A DNA stretch of 55,740 nucleotides, filler included, from Sphacelaria rigidula (Eukaryota): assembly GCA_964200075.2 (NCBI GenBank). It is 5 parts of 5 records of this genome, joined end to end, with 100 filler letters (N's around TTAATTAATTAA, not from the genome) between each part and the next. Parts side by side here need not be neighbours in the genome. Positions count along the whole stretch, not along the records: positions 44,674 to 55,740 come from CAXNAA020005444.1; 4 more parts are not named here. One strand, 5' to 3'. Positions 11,070 to 55,740 of this stretch are shown here, piece after piece (position 1 is the stretch's first letter; the number at the start of each line of letters is the position of its first letter). A program made the position numbers and the translations under genes. The notes under the pieces were generated by a model. The model saw only the letters and a list, made by a program, of their open reading frames with translations, was not told where the DNA came from and ran no database searches.

Positions 11070-11169
11070 NNNNNNNNNNNNNNNNNNNNNNNNNNNNNNN
11101 NNNNNNNNNNNNNTTAATTAATTAANNNNNNNNNNNNNNNNNNNNNNNNNNNNNNNNNNNNNNNNNNNN
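11070..11169. other. Artificial contig linker N44-TTAATTAATTAA-N44
   Basis: 100-nt spacer with stops in all six frames, identical to the other three linkers. Confidence 0.98.
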
Positions 11170-22237: not shown

Positions 22238-22337
22238 NNNNNNNNNNNNNNNNNNNNNNNNNNNNNNNNNNNNNNNNNNNNTTAATTAATTAANNNNNNN
22301 NNNNNNNNNNNNNNNNNNNNNNNNNNNNNNNNNNNNN
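22238..22337. other. Artificial contig linker
   Basis: N44-TTAATTAATTAA-N44. Confidence 0.98.
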
Positions 22338-33405: not shown

Positions 33406-33505
33406 NNNNNNNNNNNNNNNNNNNNNNNNNNNNNNNNNNNNNNNNNNNNTTAATTAATTAANNNNNNNNNNNNNNNNNNNNNNNNNNNNNNNNNNNNNNN
33501 NNNNN
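33406..33505. other. Artificial contig linker
   Basis: N44-TTAATTAATTAA-N44. Confidence 0.98.
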
Positions 33506-44573: not shown

Positions 44574-44673
44574 NNNNNNNNNNNNNNNNNNNNNNNNNNN
44601 NNNNNNNNNNNNNNNNNTTAATTAATTAANNNNNNNNNNNNNNNNNNNNNNNNNNNNNNNNNNNNNNNNNNNN
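44574..44673. other. Artificial contig linker
   Basis: N44-TTAATTAATTAA-N44. Confidence 0.98.
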
Positions 44674-46980
44674 TTTGGGAGACCGCATGTAGCCGCCACG
44701 GGGGAACACAGAGTTTCTCCTCTATGAAAATGCCAGTCTTCCTAACTGCAAACACTTTCGTGCTCGTTGGTTTCTAATAAGAACATTAAATTGTCGATTT
44801 GTGATGGTACTGTACTGATTCGCAGATGCCAATGACAGGAAAGATTCATAGTGCTGTTCGACAGTATCTTCGAACGCTTGAACGGACCCAAAGCGAACAC
44901 TTTCTTCTGTGAGTCAACGGCAACACCCAGTTTTCAGGCTTCGTCAAAACGCCCTCATCTCACGAAAAAAATAAAACCTTCATGTGCTTCCCACGATTTT
45001 TCATGTTGCCCCATGCATTACCCACACCAGATATTGGCCTGCGCATCCGCCTGCAAACGGTCGTTTTCCCTCGTGCTACCTAATTTTTCGAACAATTTCA
45101 TACCACCTTTGTTCAGTCTTCAGCATTTCCCCCACTGGCACGATCCATCCTCTTGGATAGTTTGCATTTTGCCAGTTCAACTCCTCTCTATTCCCTTGCC
45201 ATACGGTGGGCAGTTCTGTCCAGCTACTTCGCGGCTAGGCAAGACCTTTCGTGAGGCCGGGCTGATTTGAAAACATCGCTAGACTCTCGATAATGATGAA
45301 AATTCTCCTCCTGTCGGGGGCCAGTCCAAGATGAGACTTCAGAAAAATTCAAATGTGAGATTCCGGTGTTTGAAGGGGCCAACATCTGGATACGGTAGCC
45401 TTGACAACCAAGTGACAAATGTCTTAAAAATGTGCGGATAAAGGTTCGATGACTCCCTTAGAGGAAACGTTCATTTCCTCAGACGGATACCCTTTCTCAG
45501 TTTTCGCTAACCCGTCACCACGGAACGTGTCCAGGTACATGCCCGGTACAAATGTAGTGTGCACATCTCGGAGGAAAGATTTTCAGTGTGAAGAAAAAAT
45601 CATCTTGAACCTCGGGAAAAAGACCACCCTTGGAGTTCCGTGCAAAAATCATGACCAGCGCACCGCCGCAGAAGCACACATCTGTGGAATGCCCACATTG
45701 TTACATTTGCGTGTTGATCGTGTTTTCGGCTCGAGAAGCGGGATGTCATCGAGTTCTATATTGCGCTTCATAAGTAGCCCTCATTTCATGTTCAACAACG
45801 GACCGACTGTTTTCGTGATATTACCGTAACCTACAACCTCATTGAGAACCACAAAGAACAAACTTCGTTGGGTCATCCCTCGGCCAAGGCCATTTTTCAT
45901 CAGCGACGGCTGCTACCCAGTACATGTAAAAAAAGCAGTCAAGTGGCCGCAAGGGCACGTGCTGGACTCCAACCCGAATTATACAAGTTTCTAGCCCCCA
46001 AAGCTTCCACCACCTAAAACACACGCACGCCCAAAATATTTCACGATTTTTCCAACTCCCGTGGAGTAAGATGGCATTCACTAGAATTGAACGAGGTATT
46101 AGACAGGAAGTGATCATCTCACAGGGAGACGCGTCTTACTGCACGCCAAAACCCGTGTTGGAAGTCCCACATACGATGATGGAATACAGAGCGTCTGACT
46201 GGTCAGTTACTAGGGAGGGGGCCAAGATAGAAATGTACCAGTCCAACCCGAGCAGCACATACGCATTTTAGCATGAAAGAGGGGATCAACAGATTCTCCC
46301 GTCCCTTCCAAGACTTCCCTCACCTCCCATCATAGTATGTGTACTACCTGGCCTGGTGACGGCCCATTTCGCTACAAAAAACGTGGCGACCGATAATTCG
46401 TGCAACCTCGCCTCGCGTTACACCGGGAAACCGCTCCCCCTCCCGAACCTCCATCATCCGACCCTACTCTTCGTCTGTATATAATAGACCTGCCACACCC
46501 GCGGCTCATTTTCGTAGACATACGCACGAACCCGCTAAACTTGAGTAAATTACATACTTAACAACCAGATAAAACCCAATCGACACCCAGCTTCCAATAA
46601 CGTACCCTCGAATGTGGGTGGGGACATGTACTGATCTGACTTTCATGCAAAAATGCGAATGTAGCACGACGCGGCGTTTCACGTCTGCTGAGGAGATTCA
46701 AAATTCACCAAACGAGGCAAATAGAAGACCTACTCGGGAACTTCCCCCTCATCTTACCTGCACACATTTTCCATAACGTTTTCCAACATCCAAGGACGTT
46801 TCACATCCGTTCACGAGAACACACATCATTAATTAAACGCGGACACAACACTACAGAGGAGACGGAAGAACAAAACCGAGAGGGACTCCTCTTCACTACA
46901 GCCATCCTCTTCTATATACTCACTACACAAAGATGCATTTTGGTTTAAACGAAAATGAACTGAAATACAAACGTCCATGG

Positions 46981-49900
46981 TTAGTTTCGTGCTGCGTGGA
47001 CAGCGAATACACCGGCGGCGATCGCTGCCAAGGTGACAAAGCTCCCCGTGGAAGACGTAGAGGGTGCAGCCGAGGAGGAAGCCACCGGGGGGAGCGTGAA
47101 GTCTTCCGAGAGACCAGGAGGGGGAGTGGATCCCGATGTGGTGGGAGCCGCGGATCCGACGGCCCTGGAGCCGGTTGTCGGAGCCGCAGAGTAGCCGTCG
47201 ACTAGTCCATCAACGCCAGTGGGGGCCGCGGATGGGGCCCCGGTCCCGAAGTCAAGATCCCTGGAACCGGTCGTGGGTGCCCCAGTGGGTGCGACAGACA
47301 CCATGGCCGCGCCAACAGCAGTGGGGGCCATGGAGAAATCGATCGCACGGTCACCGGCGGTAGGTGCTGGGGTAGCGCCCACAAGGGGGTTGACGGGGGC
47401 CACTGCGGGCGCGTCAGTGTACGTACCGTTGACCATGATACAGGGAGCTGCCACTCCTTGCTCACACATGACGCCGTCGGCGAGGATGTTCGCCGAGCAG
47501 CAGTCCGACGCGCCCGCGGTACCGAGGATGGAGCCGCAGCCCTCACCACCACACTGGCCGCACGGCTCGGCGCAGCAAACCTCCCCATCTTGCACACCAG
47601 CGAGGCCGTTTGGGCACATGGACGGCGCGTACTCTGGAACGTGCCGACACGAAATGTAATTACACAGGGTGCATGTGCAAGCAACACATACGAGCGGAGT
47701 GCCGTGTCAGGGGAGAACTGCGTTTGTCAGGCGAGTCGTCGCTGGTCGCAACGAGTGCACTTTGTGGATGTTTTTCGAAACCACGACTTTCTTGTATAGT
47801 GAGCAGTGACTTGAGTGCTTGTCCCACTAATTTTTCCCCAACGAACATCCTTGGCGATGGCTCCTCTTCAAAAACCAGCCCAAACGTCGCAAAAAAAGTG
47901 ACATCCAGCGCCTGATGTTCAGTTTTAGGCCGCATGGAGCGCCCCACATTGGCGACAGTGGCTAGAACAAACTCACGCGTGGGAATTGCCAGCTGCTTTT
48001 TGTGTTCATGTTTCCCATTCCGGTTCACGTGGACATTTTGCTTTCCAATACCATGCTTTCGGGGGGGGGGCTATCGTAGACAGTCAAAACAAATACGAGT
48101 GCCACGGGTCACACTCGTGATCATCCGACATATGGAGAATCTAGAGTGATTGCGACTAAATAGAATAAGACGCATGAAAAAAGCAGTCACACTCCATCGA
48201 TATATTCCGCCAGCGCGGAAAACTCACCAGGAGCAGGTAGTACACATGGAGCCTGGGCGACATCTTCACATTGATCTCCGAAACTCGCGATCGTCCCAGA
48301 GCAGCAGTCGGAGCTGGAAAGGCCAGGATAGTCTCCACAGCCAAGCCCACCGCACGTGGGGCAAGCCGGGTTGCAACAGACGCCCTTGATCGGGTCCTCC
48401 ACTCCCTCATAGCCATTGGAGCACGTCGTGTTGCTTTGAGCGACTGTACAATTGGATTCCGCGTATGCGAGTCGTACATCAATTCGATTGAACAAGTTCT
48501 AAAAATTGCCGTCCTACCCGTCTTTGACCCGGTCGTGCAACGGTGGTCAAAGCAATGAAAAATGCGTCCCATGCCAACCTCGCAGAATAGGGGAGTGTTT
48601 TCGGTCCACAAGGGTCGGTTCGAAGCAGGAATACCGCGGTATAACATTTCCTTAATTTGTGCTCAGACCGAAAACATAACGCGAGCTCAAAAGACCATGG
48701 AGCAAGACTACGGTTGATAAAAAGGGTGACTAAGAGCTCGTGAGTAACGCGTCACCTGTTGTGTCGAAGCACGGGGCCTCCATCGTCACTGCGCAGTCGC
48801 GTCCAGAGTCGATGATCGACTGATAGCAGCAGTCACTGGGGCTAGTTCCAACAATCGTTCCGCATCCTTCTCCACCACACTCGTCTCCGCAAACAATGGG
48901 ACAGCACACATCCGAACTTGGGTCCTGTACTCCGGTCAACCCGTTATCGCAGGTGGAATTGCTGCTAGCAGAGGCTGCACAGTCGGGACGGAGAGTCGTC
49001 GGTCGAGTCGGAAAAACAGTCGTAAGCAGTATTCTCAACTTGGACCGACCAACATGGAAATTGTGGAAATCTCGCGAGCCATGTCTGTCGACACTTCGGA
49101 GTGGCGCTGGGCAACAGAGTCACCTATTCAAGGAAGTCTACAGTATGGCGTCATTCTCTGTTGGCCTGTTGAGAAATGGGCCGAAATCGTCCTGTCCGCT
49201 CCTCTCGAGTATTCGCACCTGTGAACAAACACTATTTCACACACGGTACGCTGAGCAAAATGGCATGCACACGTGCATACTCACTAGCTTCCAGGTTGCA
49301 AGGAGCTGCCCCCGATTCAGAGCAGAGTATGTTCGACGCCTTGATTTCGGTCACGCAGCAGTCGAAGGGTCCGTTCGTCGTGTTTTGCAAACCACACTGA
49401 GCCCCACCGCAGAAGCCGCACTCGAGGGAACAGCACACGTCGAACGAAGTTGACTCGAGACCGGGTGTCCCGTCGGAGCACTCTTGCGTCTCTAGTCGAT
49501 GATGAGGTACACGTGCATCGTCGTCGGCAAAACAAACGCGAAAGGTTGGGTGGGTTGGGGGTGTTACGTGCAGATGCATGACTGTGATGTTACGCAATGG
49601 ATTCCCGAGACGCACATGACAATTTCAATTACTGCAGGATGTCAGAATTTGTTCCGATTTGTGCCATTTCGTCGTCTAAAAGTGTCCCCAGACAGCGTCA
49701 AAGGAGGGGGCAGTAGCGTTGTGCCGACAATCAACTTCCCACGAATACGGAGCGGGGCACGTACAAAAAACAGTCAACGGTAGTTGAGGGGCGGAAGTCC
49801 CGGGCACGCGGGCTCGGTACAGCGCTAGCTTATGCGGTGTACAGTTCTCGAATACAGTCGAAGCGACCAAGGATTGTCATCTTGGGGTGAGAATGAATGT

Positions 49901-50386
49901 TGGCGCTTGTCAGCAGGAACGTGTAGGCGGGTACGTTCCACACTGCCCAAGGCACAGTGTACTAACGTACGTTGGTTCAAAGTAACGGGGGTCTGCGGAG
50001 ATAAGAAGCTGCCCAGTGATGCGCTCATACGTCAAGACACTGCGGCAGTTCGGATATTCGTTACAGGCAACAGTCCGGGTGCAGCGTACGTGACCAAGAG
50101 TGACGTCAAGGAGGCCGGGGGTACAGATGATCGAGGTATCCACCTGTGCAGTGAGCAGTTCACTGCCATCATTCGATGTACATAATTCCTTCGATTGGGG
50201 TGCGTCCATCCAGTAAAATATGGAACGATTGTTGAATGACTTCGTGTTTGGTGTGAATGTTCAAGATACATTCCGATAGTGGACAACAGTCAGTAGGGTC
50301 ATCGAGATGGGCTCACCGGCTGGCGTTGCCCATCCGACCACAGCAAGAGCTCCGATGAAAGCAGCCACGTTCATTCTTCTTGGCAT
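46981..50386 (-). CDS. Secreted, probably GPI-anchored cell-surface protein with four 8-Cys repeats and an Ala/Pro/Thr-rich stalk, 454 aa, 5 exons
   Basis: Exons 50386-50317 (MPRRMNVAAFIGALAVVGWATPA, signal peptide), 49491-49285, 48974-48756, 48443-48228 and 47633-46981; all four introns are phase 1, total 1365 nt. Each of exons 2-5 carries C-x-(N/D)G-x2-G...VCC-x3-C-x2/3-CGG-x2-CG-x7/8-DCC-x3-I-x6-C-x4-APC. The C-terminus SSSAAPSTSSTGSFVTLAAIAAGVFAVHAARN* has small residues followed by a hydrophobic tail. Confidence 0.92.
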
Positions 50387-53300
50387 CGTGTTGCGTTCTT
50401 CGAGTCACCTGAAAAAAACTGGAAGGGAGGGTGTGGACCAGGGGGCGGTGAGCATCACGAACGAGAAAAAATTGGCGGCAAAAAGGCGTTCCAGTAGTTT
50501 CAGTTGTGTTGTGGCCCCGGCTGTACTTCTTGCTCATGGGTGTTCCATCGTCTTTTATGAATGATTCAGTTCGTCCCTCATTTTGAGAAGTGGTAATGAC
50601 GGTCGACGACACTCGACACCACCTTGCGCCGACAGCAGGACGAGGGGAACACATGCGGCGAAGGCTAGAGCGGCAGCGCGGGAAAAAATATCACGAGCGG
50701 TTGGTAGTTTTGGATTGACCGGGTCGACACGTGTGGAACAGGCAGGTAGACGGATATATGGCGTAAATGGTCAACGTACAACGCAATAACACTGCCAGAT
50801 GACTCGAGAGACAAATCGTTCCATTGAAGAGTCTTCACCGCGCAGAATACGAACAAAACTGGGGCAGCCTCATAGGCGGGAGTAAGGCTGCACAAATAGC
50901 GGCCCGGCGACGCATCGTTCAAATTGCATGGGGTGAAACAATATCCCGTGTACAGCACAGCATGAACACAACACGGCCACCGGGCACTGATCGTGAACGG
51001 TTGGGGAAAATGCGCTGGAGGGAATCAAGTCATGGTCAACCGGCTGTGGACAGGCATGCTATTATTTGCGACGGTGGTCAACGCCGTCCAATGACAACCC
51101 CACCCATGCGGTGTATTGGACACGACCAAGCCTGACGGGGCGAGACAGGACATTATGTGAACCTCGCCAGCCTCCTGGAAAGGGAAGTCGAGGACCCCAC
51201 CACGATAGAACTAAAAGTGGCACACGCACATTCAACTTCCACGAGTAGAACTGCCGCCAAAAAGAAGTGTGTGGCGTAGACTGTCGGGTTTTCCTCGCGT
51301 TCTAGAGAACAACAGGGAAGAAGACGAGGAGCAACAGCTACTCCGTTAACAATTGCATAGCTGCCGCCACGGAGAAACCATCCTCAGCTCGAAGCTCGAA
51401 ACGTATGACGGGCTCTCACCTTTTCGCCCAAGGAGAAGCTGGGAGTTGTATTGCTTTAGGCCGGTAGGTTGGACGATGTGATGATTGAAATTGTGTTGGC
51501 ACGGGCGTGGTTGCCGCTGCTGCTTTAGCTCGGTATTCCGGTATGGGTGGTTCCATAATTTGGGGGAAAGACGCGAAATCTCCTCTTTCCTGTTTTTTAT
51601 CATCAACCTGCAACAAGTCGAGTCCTTTCGACTAAAGTAGGAGGGTCACGATGTTTGGATGCCGCGACATTCGTCAAAATGGCGCGTTGCCAGGATGACC
51701 AGGCCGTCAGTTGCCACGAGAGACGAGGTCTTTCGAATGTCTTCATGGATGTGTATCGACTGAAACCTTGCTTGTCGCCGCCAGATCTCTACTACTTCTC
51801 TAGATAATCGCACTGGGTAGGCGACCTCACCCAGTGGGTTGACGGGGTACTCAGGAATCGATACCTGCCGTAAAGTATGCTCTCCCAAGAGACCCCAGTT
51901 CAAAGAATTAAAGAATTTGAGAATTTAAAATGTGACGATATGGTTCCAGAATTATGCCGACATATTCGGCATAACAGGTCCGACGACCTTACACGACATC
52001 ACATACAGTCACCGCAACACGAACCGGCCGCATACAAGGCGGTATCTACGCTGTATAGTGAGGAAGTGAGGATATTGTGGTTCGTGTGTTTTTGTGGGCA
52101 AATGGGAGAACTGATATTTGTCTGTGTGGATGGTTACTTGTGGTTTGAGGGTACGTGTTTCACTATTTTGTACCAAGGAGAGGCAGCGTCGATGGATTTG
52201 CTGGGCGCCTCTTTCTTTTTGGTGCCTACTTTTTAATCTGAGGACAACAACAACGAGGTGCAGGATGGGTTTGTATTTGTTTACTTTCTCGTATTTAGTA
52301 TCGACTATTGTGGTCATTGGAGGTATCACAAACTCAAGATTCAAGATTACCCTCATCTTTCAGTGCTATAATGAGGCACAAGGTACTTTGTTATCTGTAC
52401 CGTGCGCACCATCTGTTCTGTGGGGGGATTGCAGATGAGCGTTGGCTTTTGTCGAAAGAGTTATAACCACCCTGTGTTTGACATGACCACACGAGTGAAT
52501 CAAGCATCGTTCCCAGGTACACATCTTCTGTTGTGGAGTATTTCCACGACAGTTTGGATCCAGTTTGTCTCGAAGATGTGTCTCCACGGAACCACATTCC
52601 ATAAATCGCTTTCATCGTGAACAAATGTGAATGCTGCCCAGAGTCTTACTGGAAAATCCTACTTTACACTTCAAGCAACAGGCTGCAAAATCATCTTGTC
52701 CAGACACAAGCCCGATATACACATGGTAGCCCTTCAACGCTTTGTCGCTCGAGGTGTGCGGTCTGTGTTTCGTAACCATTCTTCGAGAGAAATAAAGGAT
52801 GCCAATTCAACATTTGGAAGGGTTAGTTCTTTCACTCGAGCGTCACCTCGGAACAGTTTCGCTGATAGAAGGGGTAGTCAGTAGTTGCATTACATGCAGT
52901 GCTGTATACAACCGTAAACTCAGTCTTGAATCGAATTTGTTTTCAAGTGCGCATATGTGTGAACCCTCATGTAGATACGAGTAGCCTTCGAAGAATCATC
53001 GTGTGATATTTCATCTGGAATGTCCCGCGAAGTAGACACAGCTCAAGCGGGCAGCGAGCCCACGACGAAGGAGTGCCGGTCCGCCCGAGGAGGAAACCTG
53101 CTTCAAGACGTGAGCGTCCAAGACGGGAGCATCTGTGCTAAATTGTGATTTAAAGGTGACAGTTTGCTGTGTTCGGTGACACGATTAGTGTTCTTCTGTG
53201 CGAGTATTGGTGCCTTACGGACGCAGTGGTTCGCCGACGTGTGGCGGCCGCGCTAGACCATCTGGCCCCCCCACGATGCTTACGGAGTAGCCCATGATGT

Positions 53301-53977
53301 ATAGGGTTCATCTGAAAAAGAACTATTATACTTTATGCCAAAATTGTTCTTGCCTCATCAGAAACGCAAGACAGAATTGTCTGCATACATCCTTGGTGGT
53401 GAAATTGGACGGTATGGAAATTGAATACTGCACGACGGTTTTCACTTTCAAACCCCCAGTACAGAACACCGCACTGCTGTTGTTGTATACCGTACTGTAG
53501 TACAGTGCCAGTCCAAGGTTACCACTGCACACTGCACTGACTGTCGAAACTTTCATGGCACGGTGGTTGTTGAACAACAGACAGGCAGATCACGCACGCC
53601 AACACCGATGCCCTTGAGCTGTAACACGCGTTGTACCCAGCACCGCCCCTTTGAAAGGCATCGCCTATGCTGCAGATTCTGGGGGGGGTGTGGCGTGATT
53701 GCTGTTCGTTGCGACTTTCCTTCGTGCGAACACTCATTCAGTGGATGATACAATCAGCGGTGTGCTCGCGCCAGTTCAAGCATTGCGTAGGTAGCTCATG
53801 TTTTAAGCCTGTATGTCTATGCCGGCGGCATGTGATGATAATACAGCCTTATCGGTTGGTCGATGATGCCAGTGCCCACCGGCGGCCATCTTGCGTTCGA
53901 AGGATGGTTTCATCCCTTAGGGCGTGTCTTAGACGGGCTCTAATGGGAGCCGTTCAGATTTTATTTTTCAAAAAAAT

Positions 53978-54125
53978 TGAACAGGTGGTCACGAAACCGA
54001 CGATTATGGAACAAAATCATCAAGATTTTGACCCCCAAAATTTTCGACGGACCCATAAAAGTGCAAAATTTTGGCCAAGCGTTCAGAATCGGGTGACAAT
54101 TCTGAACGCTTGAGCACCTGTTCAA
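53978..54125. mobile_element. Small inverted-repeat element with an internal perfect 14-bp hairpin
   Basis: 'ttgaacaggtg' ... 'cacctgttcaa' ends. Stem caagcgttcagaat (54076-54089) pairs with attctgaacgcttg (54099-54112). Confidence 0.55.
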
Positions 54126-54409
54126 AAGTTGGCACAAGAAGTAAAATGGGACATGTCATGTCTTGTACACCAGCGCACGCATACGGCTCTTTCATGTGCT
54201 ACACCTGTCACTGCACAATCGTGTATTTAAACTTTGCCAAACCTGTCTGGTCTCTGCTGGATTACCTGAGCCGCTGTACTACTATTGGATTCCGAACAAC
54301 TGCAGTTGGCAGGCAGTGCTGTCTTGCCGAAGTTTGAAATGCGATGGTGCCGACACGAAGGATAAAAGTCACGTGACTATTCATGGGCGCACAGATGGTT
54401 TCCATCGCC

Positions 54410-55290
54410 AGCAGTAGCCACGCGTGCGAGACACACTCGTCGTGCACAGCTCCCACAGAGAGGTGCGCACAGCTATATCTCCCAGCACTTCGCCGAGTGA
54501 GCAAGTATGGGTCCATCGGCGGGTAGTATGAACTAGCGCTTTCCAGCACGGTGGCTATCACGCGCAAGGTGAGTGGGCGTTGTCGCATGATCGAAACGCG
54601 GACCGTCTCTCGCACGAGGAAAAGCAGCAACGGCAGTATTGACACCGGTTGATTGAGACCCACCCACAGCCGCACACATCTACTGGCAATAAAGCTGCTG
54701 CTGCTGCTGCTGCTGTTCATGCTTCTTCTCCTTTTCGTGTGGTGGACGCGGTTAGAGTTTCGACCCGTGACAATGTCCACCACCCAGCGCGTTATTGCCT
54801 CTCTACTTCCCATCAAGTGTCGTTGTCACCCCCACTGCATTTTCAGTGCGTATCACTTGTTTTTCCTGTAGTGGACGCTGGCTTTATTCACATCAGCAGC
54901 GATAACAGCGCGTGTGAGACACACTCGACGTGCACAGCTACCACAGAGATATTCGCACTGCTGTTTATCCCAAAACTTGGCCGAGTGAGGAAGCATGGAC
55001 CCATCGGCGCGTAGTACGGGCTAGCGCTTTCCAGCACGGCGACCATCACGGGCAAGGTGGGTGGGCGTTGTCGCACCATCAAAACGCCGACCATTTCTCG
55101 CCCGAGGAAGAGCAGCAGCAGCAGCAGTATCGGCACCGGCTGATTCAAACCCACCCACAGCCGTACATATCCACTGGTGGTATCGCTGCTGCTGCTGCTG
55201 CTGCTGCTATTGCTTTTTCTCCTTCTCGTGCGGGAGGCCGTCCGCATTTCGACCGGCGACAATACCCATACACCCTTACGCGTGATTGCC
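54410..55290. repeat. Tandem diverged duplication with ~490-bp period, each unit with a (CTG)n tract
   Basis: 'gcgtgcgagacacactcgtcgtgcacagct...ctagcgctttccagcacgg...cccacccacagccg...ctgctgctg' occurs at ~54422 and again at ~54910. Confidence 0.85.
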
Positions 55291-55740
55291 GCCCTACCTG
55301 AGGTCGCTGGTATATTCGTGTGCTGTTTTCGTCATGACATCACTCGCCTTTCCCCCTACGTTGGAATGGCGTGTGATTTCTCGTGAAAATGAATTTGTGA
55401 ACTGTCACGTCACCATCACTATATACCTGTATCACGAAATGATTATCACCTTCCTTGTTTCGTCAAAATGCCGCCTTCTGATATATATTTTCTTGGGGTG
55501 CTGTTGTGGAGATGCACACCTCCTAGGTCACGCCAACTTGAATATCCATGTACAACTCCAAATTTTAGGCCATAATAGTGTCCATTTTGACCCCGGTTCA
55601 GAATCGTGGCGGAAAAAAAACGTGTTTGAAATTCTTGAATGAACTGTTGAACGGCTTCCATTAAAGTTGGCCAACTCTTCTGGTGTGTGTGTGTTGTTGT
55701 GTTGTCGTCCCATTTATTCTGGGCACCAGTCTACACCTTT

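Follow-up and report, generated by a model that had tools for sequence, protein, structure and literature searches.

When positions 46981 to 50386 of a 55,740-nucleotide (nt) stretch of Sphacelaria rigidula DNA (hereafter the window; assembly GCA_964200075.2) were analyzed, the locus was identified as an expressed gene for a conserved brown-algal cell-surface glycoprotein. The encoded protein consists of a predicted signal peptide, four copies of a small module with ten cysteines, a stalk rich in Ala and Pro, and a hydrophobic C-terminus. Judging from the proteins in which it occurs, the module is a mobile, non-catalytic accessory domain that is attached, in brown algae and some other marine protists, to wall-modifying enzymes and to receptors of the cell surface. 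For the four-module protein itself we favour, at roughly an even chance, the role of a lipid-anchored linker between wall and membrane that resembles an arabinogalactan protein (AGP) and whose modules would attach to the wall matrix.

The gene lies on the minus strand (50386-46981) and has five coding exons of 70, 207, 219, 216 and 653 nt, which run exactly from ATG to stop when the frames are assembled by script. Each of the three internal exons has a length divisible by 3, and all four introns of the coding region are GT..AG introns in phase 1. The spliced translation has 454 amino acids (aa) and every residue is identical to the deposited protein P0004 (unnamed protein product, Sphacelaria rigidula); the deposited annotation already contains the five-exon model. 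In order of transcription, the exon that contains the start codon (ATG at 50386) and encodes the signal peptide (50317..50418, assigned from spliced contigs and translation) ends in phase 1 and is followed by intron 1 (49492..50316, 825 nt), the module 1 exon (49285..49491, 207 nt, residues 24-93), intron 2 (48975..49284, 310 nt), the module 2 exon (48756..48974, 219 nt, residues 93-166), intron 3 (48444..48755, 312 nt), the module 3 exon (48228..48443, 216 nt, residues 166-238) and intron 4 (47634..48227, 594 nt). The three module exons were delimited by alignment, gene model and RNA contigs. The last exon begins with module 4 (47428..47633, residues 238-306; alignment and gene model) and continues with the stalk (47056..47427, residues 307-430; composition and alignment with orthologues), the C-terminal tail (46984..47055, residues 431-454; hydropathy and conservation in orthologues) and a TAA stop codon (46981..46983; translation). 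The 3' untranslated region (UTR) goes on below 46900.

Transcript evidence was taken from Logan contigs of four runs (X1, X2, X5 and X10) that belong to three studies. The run records do not state RNA; that the runs contain spliced RNA follows from the exon joints seen in their contigs. The joints 47633/48228, 48443/48756, 48974/49285 and 49491/50317 were observed in contigs of all four runs (CT..AC on the plus strand). In the case of X5 the third joint is written 48972/49285 with two letters between, which is the same junction as the 48974/49285 of X1, X2 and X10. Word depth was 185-2500 in exon-joined contigs versus 3-47 in introns in the high-depth runs X1, X2 and X10, X5 being far shallower; the interior of intron 1 had a depth of 6-17 in the three high-depth runs and none in X5. 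No exon-skipped joint was listed among the contigs of the four runs, although contigs drop rare variants and rare isoforms would not show in them. The first-pass annotation, made from the sequence alone, had proposed a module at the start of each of four exons and phase-1 introns throughout. Both proposals were confirmed by the gene model and by the RNA contigs that join all four junctions; the refuting case named there, RNA-seq that does not support the junctions, was not observed.

The contigs also extended the gene. Loose contig ends were found at 50420 in X1, X2 and X10, and their letters map uniquely to 51422-51451, with a GT following at 51419. Once a two-letter ambiguity is resolved, this gives a canonical GT..AG intron of 1001 nt in the 5'UTR (50419..51419) and the 3' end of a non-coding 5'UTR exon (51420..51451), into which the loose ends reach up to 255 letters. 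The gene therefore extends beyond 46981-50386. An open reading frame (ORF) at 49910-50260 in intron 1 was considered as a possible exon and rejected; it is intronic by the joint 49491/50317, has low depth and gave sub-threshold Pfam matches only. At the other end, spliced contigs run from 576 to about 1900 letters beyond the low end at about 46900 (records of 1530, 2793 and 3313 letters), which represents either a long 3'UTR or a merger with a neighbouring transcript. An 'organism B' in run X5 has the same gene with the same junctions over 47059-50357 and seven single-base differences, all of them transitions; it is a close strain or a sister species.

The four modules of the window protein, each of about 68 aa, share 36-39% identity with the first and have 20 invariant columns, of which 10 are Cys. 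The Cys spacing is C-x14-CC-x3-C-x2-CGG-x2-C-x11-CC-x10-C-x7-C, with a final A-P-C. The earlier description of four homologous modules was hence correct, while its title of an '8-Cys' repeat was not, as there are ten invariant Cys in each module. Exactly ten Cys were also counted in 472 of 497 family modules examined, and these would presumably pair into five disulfides per module. When a profile of the four modules was searched against the six-frame translation of the 55.7-kb window, only these four places matched (E-values of 1.3e-31 to 2.7e-29). The next-best match had an E-value of 0.16, and the four-module repeat is therefore far beyond chance. The reading that the repeats are a chance pattern, or that the gene is mis-assembled or a non-expressed pseudogene, is refuted by these E-values (1e-29 to 1e-31 at exactly four window places), by the spliced contigs in all four runs and by hundreds of homologues; nothing was found in its favour.

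The modules are strongly acidic. Mean net charge among the 497 family modules was -5.4, and 88% of them were negative; the four window modules contain 7-11 Asp plus Glu and 0-1 Lys plus Arg. Aromatic residues are few (mean 1.4 per module, none conserved), and apart from Cys it is chiefly Gly, Pro, Asp and Ile that are conserved. A consensus for Ca2+ binding was not identified in the module itself. An AlphaFold2 model of a single module (module 4, alignment of 46 rows) reached a mean predicted local distance difference test score (pLDDT) of 88.0 and a predicted TM-score (pTM) of 0.74; its secondary structure comprises two strands and two helices, all of them short. The full-length model with 16 orthologues (pLDDT 41.4, pTM 0.20) gave no usable inter-module geometry.

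The predicted signal peptide comprises residues 1-23, MPRRMNVAAFIGALAVVGWATPA, with a basic n-region, a hydrophobic core and a small-residue c-region; hydropathy peaks at 2.7 over residues 7-17. An equivalent N-terminus is found in 14 of 15 other aligned proteins, and the exception (P0014) is truncated. The signal-peptide exon ends in phase 1 near the expected cleavage site. Hydropathy and conservation in orthologues thus agree with the signal peptide predicted in the first pass. A Phe after the cleavage site is the rule for plastid-targeting motifs. No Phe is present at this place, and therefore nothing points to plastid targeting of the 454-aa protein. Sequons of the N-x-S/T type are located at N60, N98, N170 and N306. 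Two of the sequons, NST in the module 2 exon and NTT in the module 3 exon, immediately precede the first Cys, and many homologues also carry N-[SD]-[ST] right before the first Cys of a module. The stalk opens with an NGT sequon.

In the stalk (residues 307-430), Pro, Ala, Ser and Thr together make up a fraction of 0.59 (the PAST fraction), with 11 AP, 2 TP and no SP dipeptides, and APT(T/A)GSR motifs are repeated. AGPs are recognized by an N-terminal signal peptide, a PAST-rich region above 50% with AP, SP and TP dipeptides, and arabinogalactan glycans linked to hydroxyproline; of these features, the window protein has a predicted signal peptide and a PAST-rich region. The earlier note had called the stalk mucin-like. 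A glycoprotein-type stalk was indeed found, but its composition is rich in Ala-Pro and Thr and is closer to an AGP backbone than to a Ser/Thr mucin. The stalk is probably O-glycosylated in the manner of such a backbone, and both N- and O-glycosylation would be expected for the protein as a whole. As a separate observation, the stalk motif APT(A/T)GSRD(L/F)(D/E)F recurs and is conserved between species, something not usually seen in a glycosylated linker that is entirely disordered.

The C-terminal 24 residues consist of a small-residue stretch (STSSTGS), the hydrophobic segment FVTLAAIAAGVFAV and a final HAARN. A hydrophobic stretch reaching the last residue is the usual form of signals for attachment of a glycosylphosphatidylinositol (GPI) anchor. 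The hydrophobic tail noted earlier held up as a candidate GPI-type signal that is conserved in orthologues, and such a signal is the most likely identity of the C-terminus, about twice as likely as a transmembrane anchor with a short tail. A permanent single-pass anchor with a cytosolic tail of 2-5 residues and the same ectodomain would explain the polar residues (AARN, ATRN) that follow the hydrophobic stretch at the very end of the window protein and of many orthologues. Against it, this stretch is short (about 14-19 residues) and rich in Ala and Gly, the small residues before it (S, G and A) suit an omega site, and no further residue comes after the stretch in the proteins of Choristocarpus, Discosporangium and a paralogous group. 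We therefore regard the permanent anchor as unlikely, though as a serious competitor.

When orthologues were collected, 12 proteins were found to share the signal peptide, four modules, a PAST-rich tail (fraction 0.44-0.65) and a hydrophobic C-terminal end. They come from Ectocarpus, Pylaiella, Cladosiphon, Nemacystus, Choristocarpus, Discosporangium and one Logan transcript; the E. siliculosus orthologue is CBN78970.1 (D8LG71), annotated as 'expressed unknown protein'. In a maximum-likelihood tree of 48 modules the modules grouped by position, with 5 label changes compared with a mean of 27.1 in shuffles (none of 200 shuffles was as low). The clade of fourth modules had a support of 98/99. 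Discosporangium and Choristocarpus are early-branching brown algae. Because modules group by position and orthologues are present in these two genera, the four-module arrangement must be old, and by this comparison it dates back at least to the divergence of Discosporangium and Choristocarpus from other brown algae. Moreover, blastn among the introns of the window gene detected no mutual similarity and no trace of a recent exon-plus-intron duplication. The description of this gene as 'shuffle-prone' was consequently not supported; with four modules kept in 12 proteins and clustering by position, the gene is stable by comparison with its orthologues. Beside these orthologues, the paralogues P0010, P0012 and P0244 carry DxNGDGxxD repeats in the stalk, and P0010 matches Pfam Dockerin_1 with an E-value of 5.5e-07. 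Such dockerin-like putative Ca2+ loops would fit a Ca2+-rich alginate setting.

The module family is large. A word-indexed search returned 69 homologous proteins, and an exhaustive search of 1.84 billion cluster representatives returned 1088 at E-values of 1e-3 or lower, 272 at 1e-10 or lower and 24 at 1e-30 or lower. Long tandem arrays exist, with up to 14 matched stretches in P0113, and distant copies aligned to the profile retain the core CC-x3-C-x2-CGG-x2-C ... CC ... I ... C ... APC. Most named family members are from brown algae. Outside this lineage, the module was observed in Tribonema gayanum and T. minus (Xanthophyceae), in MMETSP transcripts and in environmental proteins (JGI, ENA and Logan). 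In addition, the transcriptome of the diplonemid Rhynchopus euleeides contains a 2487-aa protein with eight domain matches, which may be contamination. A homologue search from the modules of the Tribonema protein P0171 gave two further proteins, the range outside brown algae being thinly sampled. It had been proposed that the module evolved independently in a multicellular stramenopile. This does not agree with its presence in Tribonema, the diplonemid transcriptome, MMETSP and environmental proteins; the distribution of homologues indicates that the module is not a brown-algal invention, though it is much amplified in brown algae.

No characterized relative was found. Scanning the four modules against Pfam-A (24,736 models, which presumably include the WSC, EGF-like, hevein-type and CBM1 families) gave no family at E-values of 10 or lower for any of them, and multi-module homologues such as P0001-P0004 had no Pfam family either in our scan or in the newer precomputed Pfam annotation. 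When the module profile was aligned with hhalign to WSC segments from six family members, the probability was 0.4%, compared with 99.9% for a split-half positive control. The profile matched none of the PDB sequences at E-values of 10 or lower. Likewise, Foldseek of the single-module model against the PDB returned nothing at E-values of 10 or lower, VIA-align against 48,161 chains nothing with Z of at least 2, and the ESM Atlas no usable match for module 4. The first-pass statement that the module could not be matched to WSC, EGF or chitin-binding type 1 domains thus withstood the Pfam-A and WSC comparisons, and the Pfam and Foldseek checks proposed with it matched no characterized domain family or PDB fold. 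It should be noted that small disulfide-rich domains score poorly in fold searches, and a new fold is not claimed from these null results.

Viral and prokaryotic sequences were also searched. In IMG/VR viral contigs, the four-module alignment gave 72 pattern matches, of which none was confirmed (pattern plus tblastn). In BFVD, weak fold matches were obtained to two uncharacterized giant-virus proteins, Satyrvirus A0A3G5AEX5 (E-value 0.07) and Tupanvirus A0A6N1NJ43 (E-value 0.6). These cover 55 columns with TM-scores by query of 0.56 and 0.53 and identities of 27-31%, below significance; the two proteins are possible distant relatives. A metagenome locus (L001) found with a single-module query was rejected as a false positive (GC fraction 0.71, best profile E-value 0.068). 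Among prokaryote genome contigs, no relative was confirmed with P0110, an environmental protein that combines sedolisin and the module, as the query.

The literature was searched for the module as well. Full-text searches returned no paper in which it or its Ectocarpus accessions are named, Herve et al. 2016 and Fischl et al. 2016 being outside the scope of that search. The module is not mentioned in the available parts of the Phaeoexplorer preprint (10.1101/2024.02.19.579948), PMC11468063, PMC8307928 or a paper on an oomycete protease (PMC10084794). A paper on brown-algal PR-1 proteins (PMC12879055) lists WSC, lectin and carbohydrate-binding module (CBM) as partners of CAP in the part that we could consult, and the 10-Cys module is absent from that list, although two of the 150 family members scanned by us (see below) are CAP fusions. 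The module family appears to be undescribed in print.

Domain partners were determined by scanning 150 family members against Pfam at E-values of 1e-5 or lower. These members were 55 hand-picked, mostly long proteins from two match lists and 95 others listed with at least 200 aa. Another Pfam domain was found in 35 of the 150, from more than 15 families, and 19 of these 35 carry a carbohydrate-active or carbohydrate-binding domain. The carbohydrate-related partners include Beta_helix/NosD of the mannuronan C5-epimerase type (6 members, one named MEP12), WSC (7 members, one of which also has LPMO_10 and CBM_1, one GSDH and one LRR), polysaccharide deacetylase of carbohydrate esterase family 4 (CE4; 4 members), alginate lyase (1 member) and glycoside hydrolase family 26 (GH26; 1 member). 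The modularity of Ectocarpus C5-epimerases is reportedly treated by Fischl et al. 2016. Other partners are leucine-rich repeats (LRR; 7 members), protein kinase (2 members; in P0048 one module lies upstream of the kinase domain), CAP (2 members), and VWA, sedolisin pro-domain, Reprolysin, multicopper oxidase and a Dockerin-like domain (1 member each). Ankyrin and FNIP were also found in 1 member each and may be gene-model fusions. The earlier expectation that the module is mobile and fused to other domains was therefore well founded at the level of the family.

In the window gene, the module exons of 207, 219 and 216 nt are flanked by phase-1 introns and are of class 1-1, and each module boundary with an intron has a phase-1 intron. 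Protein text was used to look for the same boundary in other genes. A signature [G/S/C/R][E/K], located 4-6 residues after the last Cys, is the expected read-through of a phase-1 donor N/GTRAG in unspliced ORFs. It was present in 21 of 41 modules of a short single-domain set (A2) and in 8 of 27 Logan/ENA modules, where most of the others belong to last-exon 'stalk' orthologues in which no intron is expected. Among modules of spliced gene models it was present in 7 of 163. These proportions suggest that other genes, too, have a phase-1 donor 4-6 codons downstream of the module's last Cys. In P0036 (ENA) and P0037 (Logan), two consecutive modules stand in one frame without an intron between them and are followed by 'PGEF', which is of the read-through type; either not every module boundary of the family has an intron or these are partly spliced RNAs. 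Exon shuffling in Ectocarpus is known for exons of LRR and tetratricopeptide repeats (TPR), and the screen described in the accessible part of that study (PMC3341825) needed successive exons of identical length. Unequal exons such as those of 207, 219 and 216 nt would fail in such a screen if the Ectocarpus orthologue is likewise unequal.

The module was compared with known systems. WSC (PF01822) is also a small, Cys-rich, putatively carbohydrate-binding extracellular module that is abundant in brown-algal wall proteins and is appended to the same kinds of protein (C5-epimerase-type enzymes, CAP/PR-1 and LRR), and both modules occur in one polypeptide in 7 of the 150 family members. However, no sequence relation exists between them (no Pfam match and 0.4% in hhalign, as above), and WSC has up to 8 Cys whereas the module has 10 with the spacing C..CC...C..CGG..C....CC....C....APC. 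With animal class 1-1 modules such as EGF-like domains, which spread by exon shuffling, the module shares one module per exon, phase-1 flanks, a phase-1 signal-peptide exon and occurrence in many architectures. It differs from them in having no Pfam EGF-type match, in its size of about 68 aa with 10 Cys, in its lineage, in a module number fixed at four in the orthologous group of the window protein, and in the intron-less module pairs of P0036 and P0037. Accessory CBMs of carbohydrate-active enzymes are likewise non-catalytic, often tandem, and N- or C-terminal on C5-epimerase-type beta-helices, alginate lyase, CE4, GH26 and LPMO_10, but the module has no assigned family, is acidic and has no conserved aromatic platform. 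At the level of the whole protein, the layout is comparable to that of plant chimeric AGPs, especially the fasciclin-like AGPs, in which a GPI-anchored adhesion domain is combined with an AGP region; shared features are a signal peptide, folded domains of the adhesion type, a PAST region rich in Ala-Pro (0.59 in the window protein) and a hydrophobic signal at the C-terminus. The folded domain of the window protein is unrelated to fasciclin, and its stalk differs in the absence of SP and the small number of TP dipeptides (2). Chimeric AGP-like proteins have been reported from brown algae, according to the available parts of PMC8307928 and PMC11468063, which both cite Herve et al. 2016.

In the reading that we favour, the signal peptide would be cleaved and the C-terminal hydrophobic signal exchanged for a GPI anchor, so that the protein would sit on the outer face of the plasma membrane with the stalk holding the four modules out into the wall. 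The modules may then attach to a matrix component, most likely to the network of alginate and Ca2+ or to a different wall polysaccharide. Should alginate or fucans, both polyanionic, be bound, this would plausibly happen via Ca2+ bridges. The protein could act as a wall-membrane linker or as a wall sensor, in a layout comparable to that of plant fasciclin-like AGPs. The alginate matrix is proposed as a candidate ligand because of the epimerase-type, alginate-lyase and WSC partners, and polysaccharide binding as such is suggested by the fusion partners alone. Several points weigh against this reading. The link to carbohydrates is one of association with fusion partners only, and 115 of the 150 scanned members have no recognizable partner domain. 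With their strong acidity and few aromatic residues, the modules are unlike the binding faces of classical CBMs, and without Ca2+ as a bridge their charge disfavours a direct contact with polyanions such as alginate or fucans. The LRR, kinase, CAP, VWA and protease partners would equally fit a generic extracellular building block. In addition, no sequence or structure match (Pfam, PDB and fold searches) hints at a function, and the window protein ends in HAARN after a hydrophobic stretch of no more than about 14-17 residues.

Alternatively, the module could serve as a general-purpose unit of structure or protein-protein interaction, similar to EGF/cbEGF in animal matrix proteins and possibly Ca2+-binding, that spaces or stiffens extracellular proteins instead of binding a polysaccharide. 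In that case the four-module protein would function in the matrix or in adhesion through protein contacts. Acidic, aromatic-poor modules, structural conserved positions (Gly, Pro, Asp and Ile), partners such as LRR (7), kinase (2), VWA, CAP and proteases, the long arrays of up to 14 stretches in P0113, and phase 1-1 exons as in animal matrix modules are all in line with such a unit. It does not account for the 19 of 35 partnered members with carbohydrate-related domains, which include the alginate-specific C5-epimerase-type beta-helices and alginate lyase, and no Ca2+-binding consensus was identified within the module; we consider it a tenable but rather unlikely explanation. Still less probable is a role of the module as a recognition domain in immunity or wall-integrity sensing, for microbial or damage ligands such as oligo-alginates, with the four-module protein as a co-receptor. 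Fusions to LRR ectodomains (7 of 150), kinase (P0048) and CAP/PR-1 (2) would suit this role, as would the exon shuffling by which brown-algal LRR and TPR receptor candidates evolve, according to the accessible part of PMC3341825. Copy number and position of the modules, however, are conserved across brown algae, unlike in fast-evolving receptors, and most of the enzyme partners are wall-remodelling enzymes. The wall-membrane linker remains our preferred role for the four-module protein. An extended form of it, which we offer tentatively and think more likely wrong than right, is that the module has a new fold and founds an ochrophyte carbohydrate-binding family. The module would dock enzymes (C5-epimerases, alginate lyase and LPMO, i.e. 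lytic polysaccharide monooxygenase), receptors and the GPI-anchored AGP-like protein on the alginate/Ca2+ gel via Ca2+ bridges instead of aromatic stacking, and would have spread in brown-algal extracellular proteins by phase-1 exon shuffling.

Cys-rich accessory modules, phase 1-1 exons and the chimeric AGP layout are each known kinds of thing. Brown-algal walls, with their alginate and fucans, underlie the mechanics of kelp forests as well as an industry. To our knowledge, WSC aside, hardly any information exists on the targeting of wall enzymes and surface proteins to the brown-algal wall matrix or on how they sense it. The present family is large, has neither a Pfam model nor a solved relative, and occurs on wall enzymes and on LRR/kinase receptors. 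One of its members, a four-module and probably GPI-anchored glycoprotein, is conserved across the whole brown-algal tree, and its phase-1 exon structure makes it a well-defined example, outside animals, in which the shuffling of exons for extracellular modules can be studied. A docking family spread by shuffling, if true, would mean that a toolkit like that of animal matrix modules arose convergently. If the proposed binding is true, the module would represent a new CBM family and a labelling tool for brown-algal wall polymers.

Runs of N spaced about 11,168 bases apart, at 11070-11169, 22238-22337, 33406-33505 and 44574-44673, show that the window is composed of five separate contigs of about 11,067-11,069 nt each. 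Since these spacers separate contigs, sequence read across them is not truly linked, and the genomic surroundings of the gene are limited to 44674-55740 (11,067 nt). The ORFs in the rest of this 11-kb contig had no Pfam match above the cut-off. One of them, on the plus strand at 54918-55298, has a sub-threshold match to glycoside hydrolase family 9 (E-value 0.0036; 17.1 bits compared with a cut-off of 27.7); it could belong, as an exon, to a cellulase-like gene next to the locus, or be noise.

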